The notes: generated by a model from the letters alone, not told the origin. A stretch of DNA of 64,000 nucleotides from a virus (IMGVR_UViG_3300001528_000208:40806-104805); one strand, 5' to 3'. Positions 34,391 to 41,592 are shown, numbered from the stretch's first letter. A program made the numbers and translations.

Positions 34391-36355
34391 ATGAACGACT
34401 TTGACAAGGCTCTTGATTTTATTCGGAATCACTACTTTTCAATCCTTGTGTTCAACAAGGGTACAAAAGAACTATATGAACGTATCTGTAAAAGGTATGA
34501 TGCCGTGCGTGTTGAATACGACGATGCTGTCGGGCTTAGGTTTGGTCTCTATAGGTACGCTGGATATTCAATTTATCCTGCACGATGCTATGAAATTTCC
34601 GACGGCAGAGGATATTACGACGGTCAGTGGTATTCCGTTCTGTCGTTCGATAGGCGTCCGACGGCAAAGGTGGTGTAACTATGTTCAAAGTCGGTCAAGT
34701 TGTTTGGTGTAAGAAAAGGTATCAATACAGCGTTACAAATTATCACGTCAAATGCAGGGTGGTTAAAACGTCTGCAACCTGCGCCATTCGCGTTCGTGTT
34801 ATGGAAGGTCATTATTCTGGCAACGAATATCCCGTAGACGGAAGCTATTTTGAATTGGTGCAAAAGAAGGCGGTGGTTGTATGAAATTCTCGGATTTTCG
34901 CAAGGGCGACCTTGTGTTTTCTGATGGGAACAAGGGGCGCGTCTGGACTGTTGTAGAAACATCCGCCGTCGGCGTAAGGCTGCTTTGCACACATTTCCGC
35001 GAAGGTGATAAGGTCGGTGAAAAGCTGGGTAAATTCAGCACCTGCGAACCGACTTGGTTCACAGGAAATCCAAAGATTCTTCATGTCGTTTCGCGTTCTG
35101 CAAGGGTAATATAATATGGCAAGACTGAAAGCTGAAAAACTGATTCCCGCCTGTCCTATCTGTGGCAACAATATGCAGGTGGAATATAGCGCCAACATGA
35201 ACCAGATTGCTGGAACTGCCGATTGGCATTTGGATTTTGCACCACGCATTAAAATGTGCGCAGACTGTAACAAATCGCTGGTGGAAACTGTGAACAAGTG
35301 GTTCAAAAAGCAGGATAAAACCGGATTTTATCGTAAGAAGTGGGTGAAAACATGAACTTTAACATTGGCGATGTCGTCTGGTGCATCGACCCAACCAATA
35401 ACGGCGGACGTTATCCAATCACCCACTATCATCGTCCTTGCGAAGTTGTGCAAGTCAGAAAAGAAGAAATTCGCGTCAAAGTTCTTGGCGAATGTGATTA
35501 CGGCGTCAAGAATCTTGAATTTTGGGTTGACAGAAAGCTGTTTCAGCGTGTAGAATCGAAGGCGAAGGTGATTTGATGAATCTTCGTGAAGAAATCGGCG
35601 GCGTCAGGCTGAACTGGCAAAAACTTGACGGCATCAATGATATAAAAACGATTCCGTTTATAAATTTTTCCGAAGTCGTTGTGCTTGTCGAATCAGACAA
35701 TGATGCCGTGTCTTTTCTTAGAAAAATCGACAAAATATACTGGCATGGCAACTACCTGTGGTTTAATCAAGATGGTGAATATGCTGGATGGGATAGTGAC
35801 CTTGACTGGTATCCATCCGAAGATGAAAAATGGGAAACGATTGGAACGTTCTATATTCCCGAAAGAAAGGCGGCGAAAGTTTTATGAAATACTACTGTAA
35901 CGTTTATCCGCGCGATGGTCGCGACCTTACCTATGTTCACGAAATGGTTAATGGCAAGGTCGTAACCGACCTTGAAAACATCAACGTTGGCGAACGTGGT
36001 TATATCCGTCCTGCTAATGGTGGCGGCGTTCACACGTCCACAATTCAGGAAGTGGATTATCTGTGCGATGGCGATATTCGCATTGTAACGCGCAACAGTA
36101 TCTATGAACTCACAAGGATGGGTGACGACGATGCGCCTTGAGTGGCTTGATAGGAAGGGCGACCGCACGTTCGTAGGTAATGCTGATAACGTAGACCAAG
36201 CGTTGGACATGATTGGCGACTGGTGTAAAGAACACGATTTTCAGTCGTTCTATGTGCGGTGGTGCGAATTTTCAGACCATTATTGGTTCGATTACGGATC
36301 GCACACCTGCTTCTTTGAACTTGCAAAAGGTCTTGACAAAGCGCAAGTTGTGTGA
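34391..36355 (+). CDS. Operon of eight small proteins; six tagged (34391, 34681, 34881, 35352, 35573, 36131) and two untagged (35116, 35884)
   Basis: Tagged ends AKVV, AVVV, ARVI, AKVI, AKVL, AQVV; promoter 34337. Confidence 0.65.
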
Positions 36356-36375
36356 TATTATAATGTCATAGCACA

Positions 36376-36647
36376 AATCGGCGTGTGTTTGGTGGAATAG
36401 CTGGTGACACCTAAAATAACCCAGCGACCAGCCTGAAAGGGCATTGACACTGGCGCGTTCCAAGGGGCGCGTTAAGCCAAAACCGGTATTTTGTGGCAAC
36501 AAACAAGGGTTTCCTCCGGTATATAAGGTGGTGCGAAATCATCCCATCTAAAATTACTATACTGATGGGCATTGTTGCGAACGGCAATAGCGGATACGGA
36601 TGTTTGATGGGGCGTCAAGCCGTATAGCGATTAAACCCCTGCCGATT
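36376..36647 (+). ncRNA. Candidate structured ncRNA A (~270 nt)
   Basis: Own promoter (36333/36356); closing stem aatcggc/gccgatt followed by T-run; several internal hairpins; 41-nt module shared with ncRNA B. Confidence 0.7.
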
Positions 36648-36667
36648 CTATTTTTTAGGTGGTCAAT

Positions 36668-37603
36668 ATGGCTAAGAAATTTTTTGCATCATTCGAATCA
36701 GTTCCAAACGATTTCGCCGCAGCTAAACTGCGCCTTGGCGAATTTGGTGTGATTCGCGCCAATGGTAATCGCTACAACGTCCTGCCCGTTAAGGACAAGA
36801 CGCCGCTGGATGTTGGCGACAGCGTGTTTACCCGCGCTGGTGGCAATTATGGCATCTACGATATTATTGCGATTGACGACCGCTGGTTTTCTGTTGGCAA
36901 AGGCGACAAGAAAAAGGGTCGCGTTGTGCGTGCTGATATCTATGGGAAGGTGGTCTAATGAGAAACTATCCAGCTAAGGTTGGCGACCTGCTAAAATATG
37001 GTTCGACCATATATCGCGTTGTTGGCGTGAATGAATATGGGCGTGTCGATGTGCGACGTGCGTATGTGTTTTCAGGCAAAAATCCTGTTAAAAGCGATGG
37101 TGAACTTATACCAGATATTACTGTAACTGCTTTTGACCGTCGGTTTTTCATTTCTGCGAAGGTGATATAATGACAAGGGGATATAAACCTAAAGTCGGAC
37201 ATTTCTTGTGGTATTGTGGTCACATATACCGCATCTTAAAGGTACATGACGACAACAACCATGTTGACGTTCTGCATCATAGTTATAAGACTGTCGCTGG
37301 AAATTTCGTAAAGGTAAGCGATGATGTTCCACTGACATATATAACAGCAGATTCTTTTGAAAAGCGATTTATTCCGTCAGCAAGGGTGGTTTGACTATGA
37401 AATTCAGGGTTGGTCAGCTTGTTTGGTGCAATACCACCGGACAGTATGTTCAGACGGATTATCACGTCAAGTGTATTGTAACGAACGTTTTAAGAAACGA
37501 CTACATTACCGTGCGTATTACCGAAGGAAGATACGCTGGAAACGAATGGGATGTCGAAACCATTTTCTTTGAACTGGTGCAAAACCGCGCAAAAATTATC
37601 TAA
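36668..37603 (+). CDS. Four small SH3/KOW-like tagged proteins (36668, 36958, 37170, 37397)
   Basis: End GKVV, AKVI, ARVV, AKII; VG[DHQ] motif near strand starts. Confidence 0.65.
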
Positions 37604-37620
37604 GCAATAAGGAGTACAAC

Positions 37621-38169
37621 ATGAAAGACATCAAGAAGCTTTTCCTTTGGATGTGCGTCTGCTGGACGTTTATTTCTACTGTCATGCCACTTTTGGCACC
37701 AGTAGAAGAAGAACCTGTTAAAGTGCTGGTGCGAACAGAATTGTTTCACCACACTGATTATGTAGAAGTCTACGTCGAACCGACGCCATATTTCTTTGTG
37801 ACGTCAACCGAACGCGAAATGCTGGCACGTCTATTATGGACGGAAGCGCGTGGTGAATCCATGGAATGTCAGCGCGCCGTTGTAAGCGTAGTGTTTAATC
37901 GCGTGAAGTCCGACGATTTCCCCAACAGCATCGAAGAAGTTGTCAAGCAGAATAGTGGTGGCGTTCCACAGTTTGATTTAGGCAATAAACTTGGAAATGT
38001 GACACCGAATGAAATGCAATACGAGGCGGTGGATTATGTCATTTGTAATGGATGCACAGTGCCTGATTGGGTGTGCTATTTCCGCAGTCGCCATCATTTT
38101 AATTGGCGAGGGTACACACCTTATGCGCAAATTGATAGGACATATTTCGGCGGTTACGAATGGGCTTGA
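37621..38169 (+). CDS. SleB-like cell wall hydrolase with N-terminal membrane anchor
   Basis: LARLLWTEARGES...AVVSVVFNRV...FPNSIEEVVKQ..QF. Confidence 0.85.
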   Translation: MKDIKKLFLWMCVCWTFISTVMPLLAPVEEEPVKVLVRTELFHHTDYVEVYVEPTPYFFVTSTEREMLARLLWTEARGESMECQRAVVSVVFNRVKSDDFPNSIEEVVKQNSGGVPQFDLGNKLGNVTPNEMQYEAVDYVICNGCTVPDWVCYFRSRHHFNWRGYTPYAQIDRTYFGGYEWA

Positions 38170-38236
38170 CAAAATATAAACAGCGTGCTATTATATATAA
38201 TACAGCGGCAAACCCGCTTATTGAGGAGGACGAAAA

Positions 38237-38464
38237 ATGAAAAAGGACTGTTTCGGCTGTAACGGCATGGGCGGATGTTCCGTTCTTTCTGGCGATCCAA
38301 CTTGTGATGTGTGCCATTTCTATGCGACACGCGAACAGGTTGATGCGGCAAGGGCGGATGCAGACGCAAGGCTTGACGCCAAGGGTCTACGCAGAACGAT
38401 TGTGGTGCGCAACGATGTGCAAATCATGACCGTTGTTCCGATTAAGAAGGAGGTGCTGGCATGA
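38237..38464 (+). CDS. Small Cys-rich protein
   Basis: DCFG...CSVL...C..CHFY. Confidence 0.6.
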   Translation: MKKDCFGCNGMGGCSVLSGDPTCDVCHFYATREQVDAARADADARLDAKGLRRTIVVRNDVQIMTVVPIKKEVLA

Positions 38465-39036
38465 TTTCGTATCGCGGAACTGAACCCGATATCAAGATGT
38501 CACAGGCGGTGTACAATGAACTGCGCAAATATGCAGTTGCCAGTTCGACGAGGATGATGGCTATTTTCCTGAAGATTGACAAGGACGGTAGCACATATCG
38601 CGTTAAGGAAATCTATATTCCCGAACAGAACTGTAACACGGCGCATTGCATTATTGCAGATGCGGAACTTCGTAAGCTGGGTGCAGAATATATCGGTCTT
38701 TGTCGCACTGGTCATGGCACAAAGCTTGACTTTTCAAAAGACGATGTTGAACTGTTTGACAAGTCTTTCCTTGGCGTGGAAGATTACGTCTGTATGAATT
38801 TCACGCTGGGTGGCAATATGTCGGCAGACATTGTTGTTGGCGACCTGACCTTTGAAGATGTTCGCATCATGGTGATGCCGGAGTTCAAGAAGGAAGAACT
38901 GGATGCTGCGCGGGATTATGTCGATGATCGTGTCAAGGATTGGACGTATAAGGATGGCTATACTGCCCGTGAACGCGGTAATTATGTCCCGACGCCGCTA
39001 TTGACCGAACGCATCGGTTGGCGGGACGTTGTTTGA
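38461..39036 (+). CDS. JAB/MPN-like protein, apparently lacking HxH metal ligands
   Basis: YRVKEIYIPEQ and FSKDD resemble prokaryotic JAB; HSH replaced by RTGH. Confidence 0.35.
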   Translation: MISYRGTEPDIKMSQAVYNELRKYAVASSTRMMAIFLKIDKDGSTYRVKEIYIPEQNCNTAHCIIADAELRKLGAEYIGLCRTGHGTKLDFSKDDVELFDKSFLGVEDYVCMNFTLGGNMSADIVVGDLTFEDVRIMVMPEFKKEELDAARDYVDDRVKDWTYKDGYTARERGNYVPTPLLTERIGWRDVV

Positions 39037-39234
39037 AGGAAGGTTGTGAAATGGATTGGCGTTTAAGGGTGAAAAGATTGTCCATTCGCCACGAATGTGC
39101 GAATATTTGTTGGCGCATGGCGGAAAGCTGTTAAAAACAAAGCGCGACCTGAAAGATGTAACAAGAAAAATCTACATATTCGACGAAAAATCCATCAATG
39201 GGATTATCGGCGGGTATAAGAAAGAAGGAGTACG

Positions 39235-40212
39235 ATGAACAAGGAAGGTTTTAAGAAACTTTGTCTGCCGGTCAAAGAAGATTTGCTTGCGTGGCTTTAT
39301 CAGCAGTTAAGCGAATATTATGGGCTGGCGAACACGGTCAACGGTGGCGACTATCTGTTTTTCAGCGGCAACTGCCCGACAATGCTTTGTGCGCATCTTG
39401 ATACGGTGCATAAGCGTCAGCCGACCAAGATTGTCGATGATGGTAACAAGGTAAGTTCGCCCATGGGAATTGGCGGTGACGACCGCTGTGGCGTCTATTC
39501 CGTTCTTGCTGTGTTGAAGGCAACGGAAGAAAGCGGCAAGCGTCCGTATCTGTTTTTCAGCACGGATGAAGAAGTCGGCGGCGCGTCTACGAAGCGTGCG
39601 GCGCAGGATATCAAGGGTCGTGTAGCTGGCGTCGGCTACATGATTCAGATTGACCGTCGTGGCAAGCAGGATTCGGTCTATTATAAGTGCGACAACAAGC
39701 AGTTCAAGAAGTTCATTGACGAACACGGCTTTGTCGAAGCAAGCGGTTCGTTTACGGACATCTGCAATTTGTCACCCGTGTTTGACCTTGCAAGTGTCAA
39801 TCTGTCGTGCGGCTATTATAGCGAACATCATCCCGAAGAGTATGTTATCTATACAGAATTGCAGGATACAATCGACAAGGTGGTGCAGATTATCGCCGAC
39901 ACCAAGGACGACATTATCTATCCGTATTGTGAAGCGAAGCCGAAGCCAACGCAGAATTACTATGGCAATAAAGGGTCGCACTTTTGGTCGAAATACTATA
40001 CGAAGGGTGACGAAGTTTTCACGAAGTACGGTTCCAGCGCCGTCTACAAGAAGCCGAATTACAGCAACCCAATTTCTGGCGTATATCTGCCCGCTTATCA
40101 TTCGTTCATTGTGCTGGACGTCAAGGATGATTTTATCCAGATTGAATACAATGGCGAAAAAGTGTGGTCTACGTCTTGGAATTTTCAGCCTGACTACGAC
40201 AGCCTGTATTGA
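39235..40212 (+). CDS. M20/M28-family zinc peptidase
   Basis: LCAHLDTVH, GGDDRCG, DEEVGG, QIDRRG, GSFTDI, NLSCGYY.EH. Confidence 0.85.
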   Translation: MNKEGFKKLCLPVKEDLLAWLYQQLSEYYGLANTVNGGDYLFFSGNCPTMLCAHLDTVHKRQPTKIVDDGNKVSSPMGIGGDDRCGVYSVLAVLKATEESGKRPYLFFSTDEEVGGASTKRAAQDIKGRVAGVGYMIQIDRRGKQDSVYYKCDNKQFKKFIDEHGFVEASGSFTDICNLSPVFDLASVNLSCGYYSEHHPEEYVIYTELQDTIDKVVQIIADTKDDIIYPYCEAKPKPTQNYYGNKGSHFWSKYYTKGDEVFTKYGSSAVYKKPNYSNPISGVYLPAYHSFIVLDVKDDFIQIEYNGEKVWSTSWNFQPDYDSLY

Positions 40213-40244
40213 CAAAAACCAAAACGTGTGATATTATAATGGCA

Positions 40245-40700
40245 ACGGTTGAAACGTAGGCTTAGAAGCAGCCATCGTCTAAGGAGTTTATCGCGGGGCG
40301 AGTCTTGACGGTCTTTGTGCCGTGGGAAGTATCTGCTATTGCAATCATATAGAATGATATTTCTTGACCGCCTATGATTGCCGTGGATAATTTGGCGTAG
40401 TAGCACATCAACCGCATGGTGGAATGGCGGGTGACACCTAAAATAACCTCGCCACCATATCCCACAAGTTCCGCAATCGGGGCAGAGTGTAAAATGCGAA
40501 AGCACACTTGGAAGGAAAGCCGTGGGATTAACAGCGCCCATTGAAATCCGTGCGAATATTATTAACATGGTAGAATCGCCTATCTGCAACGCCGCCACAA
40601 CAACGTGGATGGCTATGCGTTAGGGCTACCGGCTAAACCGTCATTTCAAGACGGTAAGGATTAGCTGTTGCGAACCGCGAAAGTGGGATAGCGGGAAGCA
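40245..40700 (+). ncRNA. Candidate structured ncRNA B (~450 nt) with a 23S rRNA L11-binding-domain-like 5' module
   Basis: Own promoter (40209/40232); cggttga/tcaaccg helix enclosing GTAGGCTTAGAAGCAGCCATC and GCGTAGTAGC; no credible ORF; ends at next promoter. Confidence 0.75.
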
Positions 40701-40747
40701 CTTGACAAAATGTAAAGTGTGTGTTATTATAATAACATAAAGCAAAT

Positions 40748-40823
40748 GGCCCCGTGGTCAAGTGGTCTAAGACTCCGCCCTTTCAAGGCGGCAACGGCAG
40801 TCCGAATCTGCTCGGGGCTACCA
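40748..40823 (+). tRNA. tRNA-Glu(UUC)
   Basis: Cloverleaf, ccgcc-CTTTCAA-ggcgg anticodon arm, encoded CCA; T-loop TCCGAAT. Confidence 0.9.
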
Positions 40824-40975
40824 GATTGTGAAATTCAAGCGGCGAAAGCCAAGCCACCGTTACAGCCGGTATTGACAAAATCCAAAATGTGTGCTATATT
40901 ATTATCATGGTGTGAACAGGTTGGTCGCCTGTGAACATAAATTCAAAATTTTGAAAGTAAGAAAGGAAAAAGACT

Positions 40976-41362
40976 ATGATTCGTAATTTCAGAGACATCG
41001 ACGCCGGTAGCATCATCATCTCCAAGAAGGGCAAGCAGTACATCGTTTTGACCGACGGTGAAAACAACAAGGGCCTGTTCGACAAGAACGGCGTTTGGAG
41101 CCGCGTCAACTACGACACGCTGACCTTCGGCAAGAACGACAGCGGCGAAGTCAAGGAAGTCAAGCAGTTCCGCACTCTTCCTGCCCTTGATCGCATCAGT
41201 GAGGCGGTGAAGTACCAGTACACCAGCCGCACCGCCTGTGCGCCGCTGACTACGGTTTACACCGCCGAGCCCGCCGAGGTCACTGCCGCCCGCAAGGCGC
41301 TTGCTGACGCTCAGGCTGCCGCTGACCGTGCCCGTGCCGTCATGGCTGCCTACGGTTTCTAA
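40976..41362 (+). CDS. Hypothetical protein with strong codon bias between tRNAs
   Basis: Own promoter 40872, AAGGA RBS, hairpin 41382-41405. Confidence 0.75.
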   Translation: MIRNFRDIDAGSIIISKKGKQYIVLTDGENNKGLFDKNGVWSRVNYDTLTFGKNDSGEVKEVKQFRTLPALDRISEAVKYQYTSRTACAPLTTVYTAEPAEVTAARKALADAQAAADRARAVMAAYGF

Positions 41363-41412
41363 GCCGTAGAAATTCCCCAGCGGGAAGTGGCGTAAGCCAC
41401 TTCCCTATATAT

Positions 41413-41488
41413 GGCGCACTCGTCTAAAGTTAGGATGCCGCCTTCTCACGGCGGAGATAGAAGTTGCAATTCCTTCTGTGCGTCACCA
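41413..41488 (+). tRNA. tRNA-Glu(CUC), atypical T-loop
   Basis: ggcgcac/gtgcgtc acceptor, ccgcc-TTCTCAC-ggcgg, CCA end; 9-nt T-loop TTGCAATTC. Confidence 0.75.
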
Positions 41489-41592
41489 AGGCGTAGAAAT
41501 ACGCCTTTTTCTATGGGTGTTGACAAAAACAAAATATAGTGCTATTATAATAGCATAGGCAAGCAAAACATAAAACATTAAAACGGAGGTCT

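Follow-up and report, generated by a model that had tools for sequence, protein, structure and literature searches.

What kind of gene is represented by two non-coding segments of a phage genome that lie behind separate promoters and carry almost the same 41-nt module? The question is raised by a 64,000-nucleotide stretch of viral DNA (IMGVR_UViG_3300001528_000208:40806-104805, hereafter the window), which covers the right-hand 64 kb of an IMG/VR virus record (104.8 kb, judged 98% complete). A previous inspection by a model, made from the letters alone (the sequence-only reading), had described the two segments, here RNA A (~290 nt) and RNA B (~460 nt), as separately promoted large non-coding RNAs of a modular family, possibly related to ribosomes or tRNAs. 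Our results agree with the core of that description, as near-consensus promoters and covariation at the RNA level were found at both loci, and the shared covarying module occurs in various head and body combinations in related phages. Both RNAs are non-coding, and each begins a few bases past its promoter. With confidence and doubt evenly balanced, we interpret the two loci as genes for stable structured RNAs, organized as chains of self-contained pieces, in which the module would be a surrogate of tRNA. The coordinates of all elements, and the arrangements found in related phages, are collected in Table 1.

The two copies of the module were located at the positions first reported, 36390-36430 (copy A) and 40417-40457 (copy B), with the quoted letters in place; they are identical at 36 of 41 nt (88%) and share a 16-nt loop without differences. 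This 16-mer occurs twice in the window and twice in the 104.8-kb genome, on the + strand each time. The comparative sample comprised 15 distinct copies from ~10 phage variants, known from metagenomes only; the related contigs were 10 of the same lineage retrieved by one metagenome pattern scan, and 9 more syntenic contigs collected through homologues of the peptidase encoded upstream of RNA B. Across the 15 copies, both stems together pair in 135 of 135 cells, and 5 of the 9 pairs are changed on both sides, compared with 0-1 in slid controls, confirming the proposed combination of invariant loops and compensatory stems. Stem 1 appears as GGUG/CACC, GGCG/CGCC or AGCG/CGCU (positions 2-5 changing together with 19-22), the inner stem 2 appears in five compensating versions, and the loops (GAAU, UGA and UAAAAUAAC) are almost invariant. 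Covariation of this type shows that the module folds as an H-type pseudoknot and not as a plain hairpin. An additional outer stem, tggt/acca (module positions 1-4 with 38-41), was considered and discarded, being broken in variant copies.

Every copy of the module was scored at 58-71 bits by a model built from it, whereas no other place in ~1.2 Mb of phage DNA, and none of 117 other loci bearing the ribosomal RNA mimic described below, exceeded 15 bits; because of these low scores, the module is restricted to one phage lineage. The exact loop 16-mer was found in one sister phage in IMG/VR, where 13 further matches lacked the stems and are attributed to chance, and its 13 matches in 185,579 prokaryote genomes were all stemless chance matches as well; a degenerate-loop scan and a scan for an RNA A motif in IMG/VR likewise returned chance matches only.

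Past stem 2, one freely varying nucleotide is followed by ACCA, which is invariant in 15 of 15 copies and is kept even in those without its possible 5' partner. The stem leading to ACCA has a purine at position +1 and, in 14 of 15 copies, a U at -1. The meaning of these letters is suggested by the related phages, in which comparison of the sequences shows that the RNA A body is kept while a tRNA-Ile, a tRNA-Met or a decayed tRNA, each ended by ACCA, takes the place of the module. The decayed version (L218:3142-3230) matches the tRNA model from end to end (23.7 bits), displays an Ile-UAU-type anticodon loop, and ends with ACCA before hairpin P2. The same comparison shows that the mimic, the module and the two kinds of RNA B body combine in nearly every way within the lineage (Table 1; the solitary mimic is at L226:2093-2257), and the leader of RNA A also precedes the B-slot module in L222. 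Relatives whose peptidase is 46-54% identical carry plain tRNA genes in these intergenic slots, with no module. The suspected relation to tRNA was thus recovered by another route, namely the replacement of a pseudoknot plus ACCA by real tRNAs. Since real or decayed tRNAs, all ending in ACCA, replace the module before the same RNA A body, the module is a putative tRNA surrogate and, because of its acceptor-end features (U at -1, purine at +1, A-CCA), a probable substrate of RNase P.

The same module could instead be a specific aptamer, or the binding handle of a small ligand or of a protein from phage or host, unrelated to tRNA; tRNAs would then occupy its place in relatives only because promoter-proximal slots gather RNA genes by recombination. 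Near-invariance of the three loops over 15 copies with covarying stems is the usual mark of a recognised three-dimensional shape, and restriction to one phage lineage also fits. The module also has an A-rich loop 3 that crosses stem 1, as ligand-binding H-type pseudoknots typically do. Conversely, no riboswitch, leader (T-box, preQ1, SAM-II and others in Rfam 15) or pseudoknot family of Rfam matched the module or either RNA at E values up to 10, no conserved RNA-binding gene was found among the neighbours, and this explanation leaves it unclear why ACCA is invariant, why U(-1) and R(+1) recur, and why three different tRNA-type heads end at one body junction. We therefore consider an aptamer unlikely. 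The best unrelated Rfam matches had E > 0.03, far under the gathering scores, and are noise (e.g., IMES-2 at 17.5 bits).

RNA A is itself a structured RNA. Of its eight helices, seven display covariation; in an alignment of eight homologues 97% of the cells are paired, with 14 double-changed pairs, a level reached by 0 of 500 shuffles, and slid controls gave 0-4. When distant homologues were added, P3 emerged as a 10-bp hairpin, and at least four different complementary versions of P6 and four pair types in P7 were observed. Hairpin P5 is less certain, because the base of the helix never varies. RNAalifold also draws a long helix between the module and 36443-36465, which was rejected: it displays zero double compensatory changes and is impossible in the tRNA-headed forms, where P3 stays a local hairpin. 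Other motifs of the sequence-only reading fared unevenly. The strings aatcggc (36376) and gccgatt (36641), proposed to close RNA A, do exist, but the first string is missing by deletion from two relatives, and the second is part of P6. Among the words reported as common to both RNAs, tgttgcgaac...atagcgg occurs in order in each, starting at 36573 and at 40666 (given as 40667), and gtgcgaa is present at 36531 and 40550 without being conserved; since RNA A homologues differ there, its sharing is probably due to chance.

The tip hairpin of P7 had been singled out for its loop TGGGGCG, the heptamer of the 23S P loop that pairs with the CCA end of tRNA. The hairpin does exist, but the exact heptamer is limited to one sublineage of three close homologues (the window, L148 and L155); near versions are found in L218, L222 and L220, different G-rich loops in five others, and the GG core is always kept. 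Mimicry of the P loop by the tip loop (36608-36614), with docking of a CCA end from the head or from a tRNA, would be in line with the retained GG, with ACCA at the end of every head, and with the copying of a ribosomal RNA site by the phage in RNA B. The loop differs, however, in 5 of 10 homologues, RNA A has no match to the large-subunit (LSU) ribosomal RNA model and shares only chance-level words with E. coli ribosomal RNA, and in the RNAalifold structure the CC is joined to a different invariant GG, 5' of P7. A contact of 2-3 bp is beyond covariation testing because ACCA never varies; overall, P-loop mimicry seems improbable to us.

The position of both elements directly 3' of promoters, with no canonical terminator downstream of either, would also be expected of cis-acting 5' leaders, such as attenuators, riboswitch-like switches or put-type antitermination RNAs. 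Downstream of RNA A lie a U-rich tract and a ribosome-binding site, the module loop of the window is complementary to 9 nt of that site, and RNAalifold can draw the alternative long helix. Nonetheless, the 9-nt complementarity is missing from relatives, the alternative helix has neither double compensation nor a possible form behind tRNA heads, and the ribosomal RNA mimic belongs to a family that is free-standing among tRNAs. Because RNA A homologues precede at least four different genes, and RNA B precedes another promoter and a tRNA, a role as cis-regulatory leader is very improbable.

The suspected relation to the ribosome also held, by a route that the sequence-only reading had missed: the 5' end of RNA B is a copy of the uL11 domain of 23S ribosomal RNA, the GTPase-associated centre. 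When scanned alone against Rfam, RNA B matched bacterial LSU ribosomal RNA (RF02541) at model positions 1098-1143 only (E = 0.0018), and BLAST against E. coli ribosomal RNA gave one significant match, 18/18 nt with 23S positions 1062-1079 (helix 43 loop and upper stem). Other words common to RNA A or RNA B and E. coli 16S, 23S and 5S were at chance level, and the identification of 40246-40414 as a 23S gene was rejected, since no contiguous ribosomal RNA was found beyond helices 43-44.

The helix 43 18-mer is present in more than 118 IMG/VR contigs, with no ribosomal RNA gene among the matches listed, and in 113 of 120 listed occurrences the helix 44 loop motif lies 11-361 nt downstream (118 nt in the window). 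Among the 90 distinct members listed, pair 1058-1080 is G-C in 34, U-A in 30, A-U in 17 and C-G, as in the window, in 8; positions 1082/1086 are mainly U/A (41) or C/G (25). The 7-bp closing stem is fully paired in 50 of these 90, with 75 different 5' strands, compared with an average of ~3.6 pairs for random partners. In the window, this stem pairs at 7 of 7 positions, with U-A replaced by C-G in L151, and helix 43 combines the invariant loop with stem pairs 1057-1059/1079-1081; as elsewhere in the family, an insert separates 1090 from 1091. Because the helix 43 copy, the covarying pairs, the closing stem and the helix 44 motif are all present, the first ~170 nt of RNA B are shown, on comparative grounds, to be a self-closed copy of 23S helices 42-44 and a member of a widespread phage RNA family. 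We found no description of such a family of GTPase-associated-centre mimics in the literature, and no Rfam family for it. Family members usually adjoin tRNA genes: a same-strand tRNA starts within 30 nt downstream of the closing stem in 27 of 87 listed members, and one ends within 30 nt upstream in 25 of 87; in the window, the module begins 2 nt past the closing stem and tRNA-Glu 334 nt past it. At 40258 the mimic has A in place of E. coli U1061, a position occupied by U in 48, A in 26, G in 13 and C in 3 of the 90 listed members. The change U1061A stabilises the tertiary fold of the isolated 58-nt uL11-binding RNA.

In the remainder of RNA B, a hairpin at 40638-40654 (5 bp, with UUC in the anticodon positions of a 7-nt loop) is similar to the anticodon arm of tRNA-Glu next to it. 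Versions of this look-alike from relatives match at 18 of 20 nt, with similarity over tRNA positions 5-59, and the shuffle p values against the tRNA-Glu of the window were ~0.03 for the window copy and at most 0.003 for those of L143 and L161; since L221 has a different loop, the likeness was not built on as evidence. Duplex energies among RNA A, RNA B and tRNA-Glu were uninformative.

Finally, the repeats could be DNA sites or unrecognised protein-coding genes. An antisense open frame of 134 codons runs across RNA B in the window; in L151, despite ~85% DNA identity, the frame is in another phase and encodes an unrelated protein. G-U pairs and strand-specific compensation indicate selection on + strand RNA, and indels of 2, 17, 28 and 55 nt, none of them a multiple of three, are tolerated. 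Because of the compensation, the G-U pairs, the indels and the unconserved antisense frame, we regard both readings as excluded for practical purposes; the sequence-only reading had itself named a DNA site without covariation as the outcome that would overturn it, and the stems do covary in homologues.

Taken together, these findings suggest a mechanism in which the module, as tRNA surrogate, imitates the acceptor end of a tRNA through U at -1, a purine at +1, the discriminator A and CCA. It would be recognised by the RNase P of the host, and perhaps by further factors that handle tRNA, with a predicted cut in loop 1 at 36398/36399 in copy A and 40425/40426 in copy B. Such a cut would free the ribosomal RNA mimic or trim the leader, the bodies would gain defined and stable ends, and mimic, head and bodies would become separate working RNAs once punctuated by tRNA-processing enzymes. 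In a weaker step of the proposal, the released pieces would act off the ribosome as imitations of translation components, and the mimic would serve as a decoy, either of uL11 or of some factor or toxin recognising that site. An off-ribosome role of the mimic as an imitation of the uL11/factor site is the most likely one by analogy and because of the context of its family.

Several points weigh against the tRNA-surrogate interpretation. Neither module copy matches the tRNA model (RF00005) or is called by ARAGORN. In the primary transcript ACCA is internal and not 3'-terminal; therefore, mimicry of the aminoacylation type is excluded unless the RNA is cut there. The stacked stems of the module comprise 9-10 bp, compared with 12 in the acceptor/T arm of tRNA, and the covariation of stem 1 represents two or three evolutionary events. 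Near-invariant loops are superfluous for an acceptor mimic, which suggests a more specific fold or partner. Furthermore, the replacement of heads could reflect recombination at promoter-proximal RNA slots instead of functional equivalence, and cleavage, transcript ends and uL11 binding are all predicted from sequence.

A broader proposal would have this lineage assemble RNA-only imitations of translation from swappable parts, i.e., the ribosomal RNA factor centre, a pseudoknot standing in for the acceptor, and the bodies. The G-rich loop or GG of the body may dock ACCA as does the P loop, or the P15 loop of RNase P, and the RNAs would trap or redirect RNase P, uL11, or stringent-response or defence nucleases. 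We consider this quite unlikely; if true, these RNAs would form a class of their own, new among those that serve phage take-over or counter-defence.

Table 1. Elements of the two RNA loci in the window, and arrangements of the corresponding slots in related phages.
Element	Position or phages	Strand	Remarks
Promoter of RNA A	36333-36361	+	TTGACA, 17 nt, TATTAT, TG extension; kept in all homologues; start estimated near 36368
5' leader of RNA A	36368-36389	+	Dispensable; gone through a 17-nt deletion in two relatives
Module copy A, H-type pseudoknot	36390-36430	+	Stem 1 36391-36394/36408-36411; stem 2 36400-36404/36421-36425; ACCA 36427-36430
P2, GNRA-capped hairpin immediately 3' of ACCA	36431-36442	+	Closing pair covaries, G-C to A-U
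P3, 10-bp hairpin, G-U-rich	36451-36474	+	First body helix; UNCG-like loop in most homologues
P4, two-part hairpin of RNA A body	36482-36520	+	
P5, long hairpin	36534-36579	+	Conserved ttgttgcg on 3' strand
P6 enclosing P7	36580-36646	+	P6 36580-36586/36640-36646; P7 36594-36599/36620-36625
P7 tip hairpin	36604-36618	+	G-rich loop
U-rich tail of RNA A	36647-36657	+	No canonical terminator; next open reading frame starts at 36668
Promoter of RNA B	40209-40237	+	TTGACA, 17 nt, TATTAT, TG extension; start estimated near 40244
23S GTPase-associated-centre mimic, ~170 nt	40246-40414	+	Closing stem 40246-40252/40408-40414
Helix 43 copy in mimic	40254-40278	+	18 nt identical to E. coli 23S 1062-1079
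Insert in mimic, 107 nt	40288-40394	+	
Helix 44 loop region of mimic	40395-40407	+	
Module copy B, H-type pseudoknot	40417-40457	+	Stem 1 40418-40421/40435-40438; stem 2 40427-40431/40448-40452; ACCA 40454-40457
Variable hairpin of RNA B	40459-40528	+	Length 70 nt, versus 46 and 16 nt in relatives; closing stem kept
Conserved body of RNA B, type 1	40529-40701	+	
Own promoter of tRNA-Glu	40702-40730	+	
tRNA-Glu(UUC) gene	40748-40823	+	Behind own promoter
RNA A slot: leader, module, P2, body	window and five others		
RNA A slot: module, P2, body	L148, L155		
RNA A slot: module and P2 only	L221		
RNA A slot: tRNA-Ile(UAU) directly before body	L220		tRNA at L220:1892-1965
RNA A slot: tRNA-Met directly before body	L222		tRNA at L222:3058-3133
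RNA A slot: decayed tRNA, P2, body	L218		Decayed tRNA at L218:3142-3230
RNA B slot: ribosomal RNA mimic alone	L226		
RNA B slot: mimic, module, body 1	window, L155		
RNA B slot: mimic, module, body 2	L151, L218		
RNA B slot: module, body 1, no mimic	L143, L161, L221		
RNA B slot: leader, module, body 2, no mimic	L222		
RNA B slot: nothing	L220		

The two loci lie within a particular genome setting. Seven near-consensus sigma-70-type promoters (TTGACA, 17-18 nt, TATTAT or similar, with a TG extension in six of seven) are found within 6 kb (35527-41548), all on the + strand, with short open reading frames (ORFs) in between and nearly no terminators; five further promoters of the same type are present elsewhere in the window. 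Because the seven promoters are strong and near-identical and terminators are almost lacking, 35527-41548 is suggestive of an early region that the host polymerase transcribes, and on the basis of the style of promoters and ribosome-binding sites the host is probably a Firmicute. That both RNA genes are expressed early, from strong host-type promoters, in a small lineage of ~105-kb phages is a conclusion to which we give an equal chance of being right or wrong. RNA B had been placed directly upstream of tRNA-Glu; the tRNA gene is indeed next, but it is preceded by its own promoter. No close relative was found by BLASTN of 36300-40900 among 50,697 deposited phages, the sole match being a 50-nt tRNA piece. 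A search of sequencing runs listed DNA sets with small shares of the words (0.05-0.07), and no RNA set.

Regarding the neighbouring genes, Pfam and PHROGs searches with 10 ORFs identified only a SleB-type hydrolase and an M42/M28-like peptidase, and no genes for uL11, CCA-adding enzyme, RNA ligase or RelA/SpoT were found in the phage. Following RNA A, four consecutive small ORFs (36668-37603; 68-96 aa) display similar ribosome-binding sites and start contexts, have no Pfam or PHROG family match, and form a set that varies among related phages. A weak second tRNA-like gene (41414-41484; Rfam tRNA, 29.8 bits), with CUC in the anticodon loop, no encoded CCA and no ARAGORN call, borders at its 3' end on the one clean terminator-like hairpin present in this region (41488-41507), the whole spanning 41414-41507; in L143, true tRNA-Glu(CUC) and tRNA-Glu(UUC) genes are adjoining. 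A ~45-nt motif with a GAAA-capped hairpin recurs beside tRNA or tRNA-like genes of the lineage (window 40826-40870; L218:3097-3138; L221:6208-6247; L143:6850-6890; L222:2990-3050), being 3' of tRNA-Glu in the window and 5' of the decayed tRNA in L218, and may be a processing or spacer element. In L220, the vicinity of the RNA A body contains an inserted IS605 OrfB/TnpB-type gene (L220:2482-3630, Pfam); an RNA ligase family protein is encoded at L222:532-1170, and a GGDEF protein at L223:639-1082.

As for their significance, at least three new structured RNA families supported by covariation (the RNA A body and the two B bodies) are present in phage DNA usually dismissed as intergenic. New in this work are a head folded as a pseudoknot, its replacement by tRNAs in relatives, the support from covariation for the body of RNA A, and a natural series in which parts are fused, separate or missing; since the mimic is present, absent, alone or fused within one lineage, natural deletion and fusion variants are available for tests of function. 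Should the surrogate interpretation be correct, the module would have no reported predecessor among pseudoknot-type tRNA-like elements of DNA phages, and would provide a natural example of non-tRNA RNAs released by punctuation of the RNase P style.

Several known systems resemble parts of these loci. The tRNA-linked GOLLD and ROOL RNAs had been invoked by the sequence-only reading as reminiscent in context, and Rfam scans of the whole region and of each RNA gave no match to either (at gathering score or E = 10), detecting only tRNA, the local LSU match and noise. GOLLD (RF01998) and ROOL (RF03087) are large ornate RNAs, often of phages or prophages, located beside tRNA genes and possibly co-transcribed with them (PMC5737381). 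The likeness is limited to this phage and tRNA context, as RNA A and RNA B are shorter (~290 and ~460 nt, versus 581 and ~800) and are built from swappable pieces. Stable RNAs other than tRNA that share a transcript with tRNAs or tRNA-like elements, and receive their ends from tRNA-processing enzymes, are represented by species C and D from the tRNA cluster of phage T4 and, with RNase P as the processing enzyme, by mascRNA/MALAT1. Here, in contrast, the tRNA-like element is a pseudoknot and one of its partners is a ribosomal RNA mimic, the likeness being one of description only.

For the module, the closest described match corresponds to the pseudoknot acceptor arm in tRNA-like structures of the TYMV type, together with artificial pseudoknot substrates of RNase P; the pseudoknot topology is the same, and the 3' strand leads likewise into a discriminator purine plus CCA. 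In vitro, loop 1 of H-type pseudoknots is cut by bacterial RNase P in an RCCA-dependent manner and with U favoured at -1, and the pseudoknotted tRNA-like ends of plant viruses such as TYMV are also RNase P substrates (PMC12710915). Unlike these, the module resides in a DNA phage and not at a genome 3' end, its ACCA is internal, it has no match to Rfam tRNA-like structures, it lacks T-arm, D-arm and anticodon arm, its loops are invariant in sequence, and real tRNAs replace it in relatives.

For the first domain of RNA B, ribosomal protein operon leaders (L10, L1) are also extra-ribosomal copies of a ribosomal protein binding site; those are cis-regulators of ribosomal protein genes, whereas here the domain is free-standing, in a phage without a uL11 gene. 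Its closest counterpart is E. coli 23S helices 42-44 (1051-1108, the uL11 and thiostrepton site), with 18 nt identical, the stem pairs kept by compensatory change at 1058-1080, both A1067 and A1095 present, and the junction UAAGGAGU in the variant with C1082/G1086. In contrast to the E. coli domain, the mimic lies outside any ribosomal RNA gene, carries 107 additional nt in the 5' strand of helix 44, and has an A at 1061 and its own closing stem. Finally, compared with the rest of the mimic family, the mimic of the window starts at its own promoter and is joined by a 2-nt linker to a pseudoknot-headed RNA.

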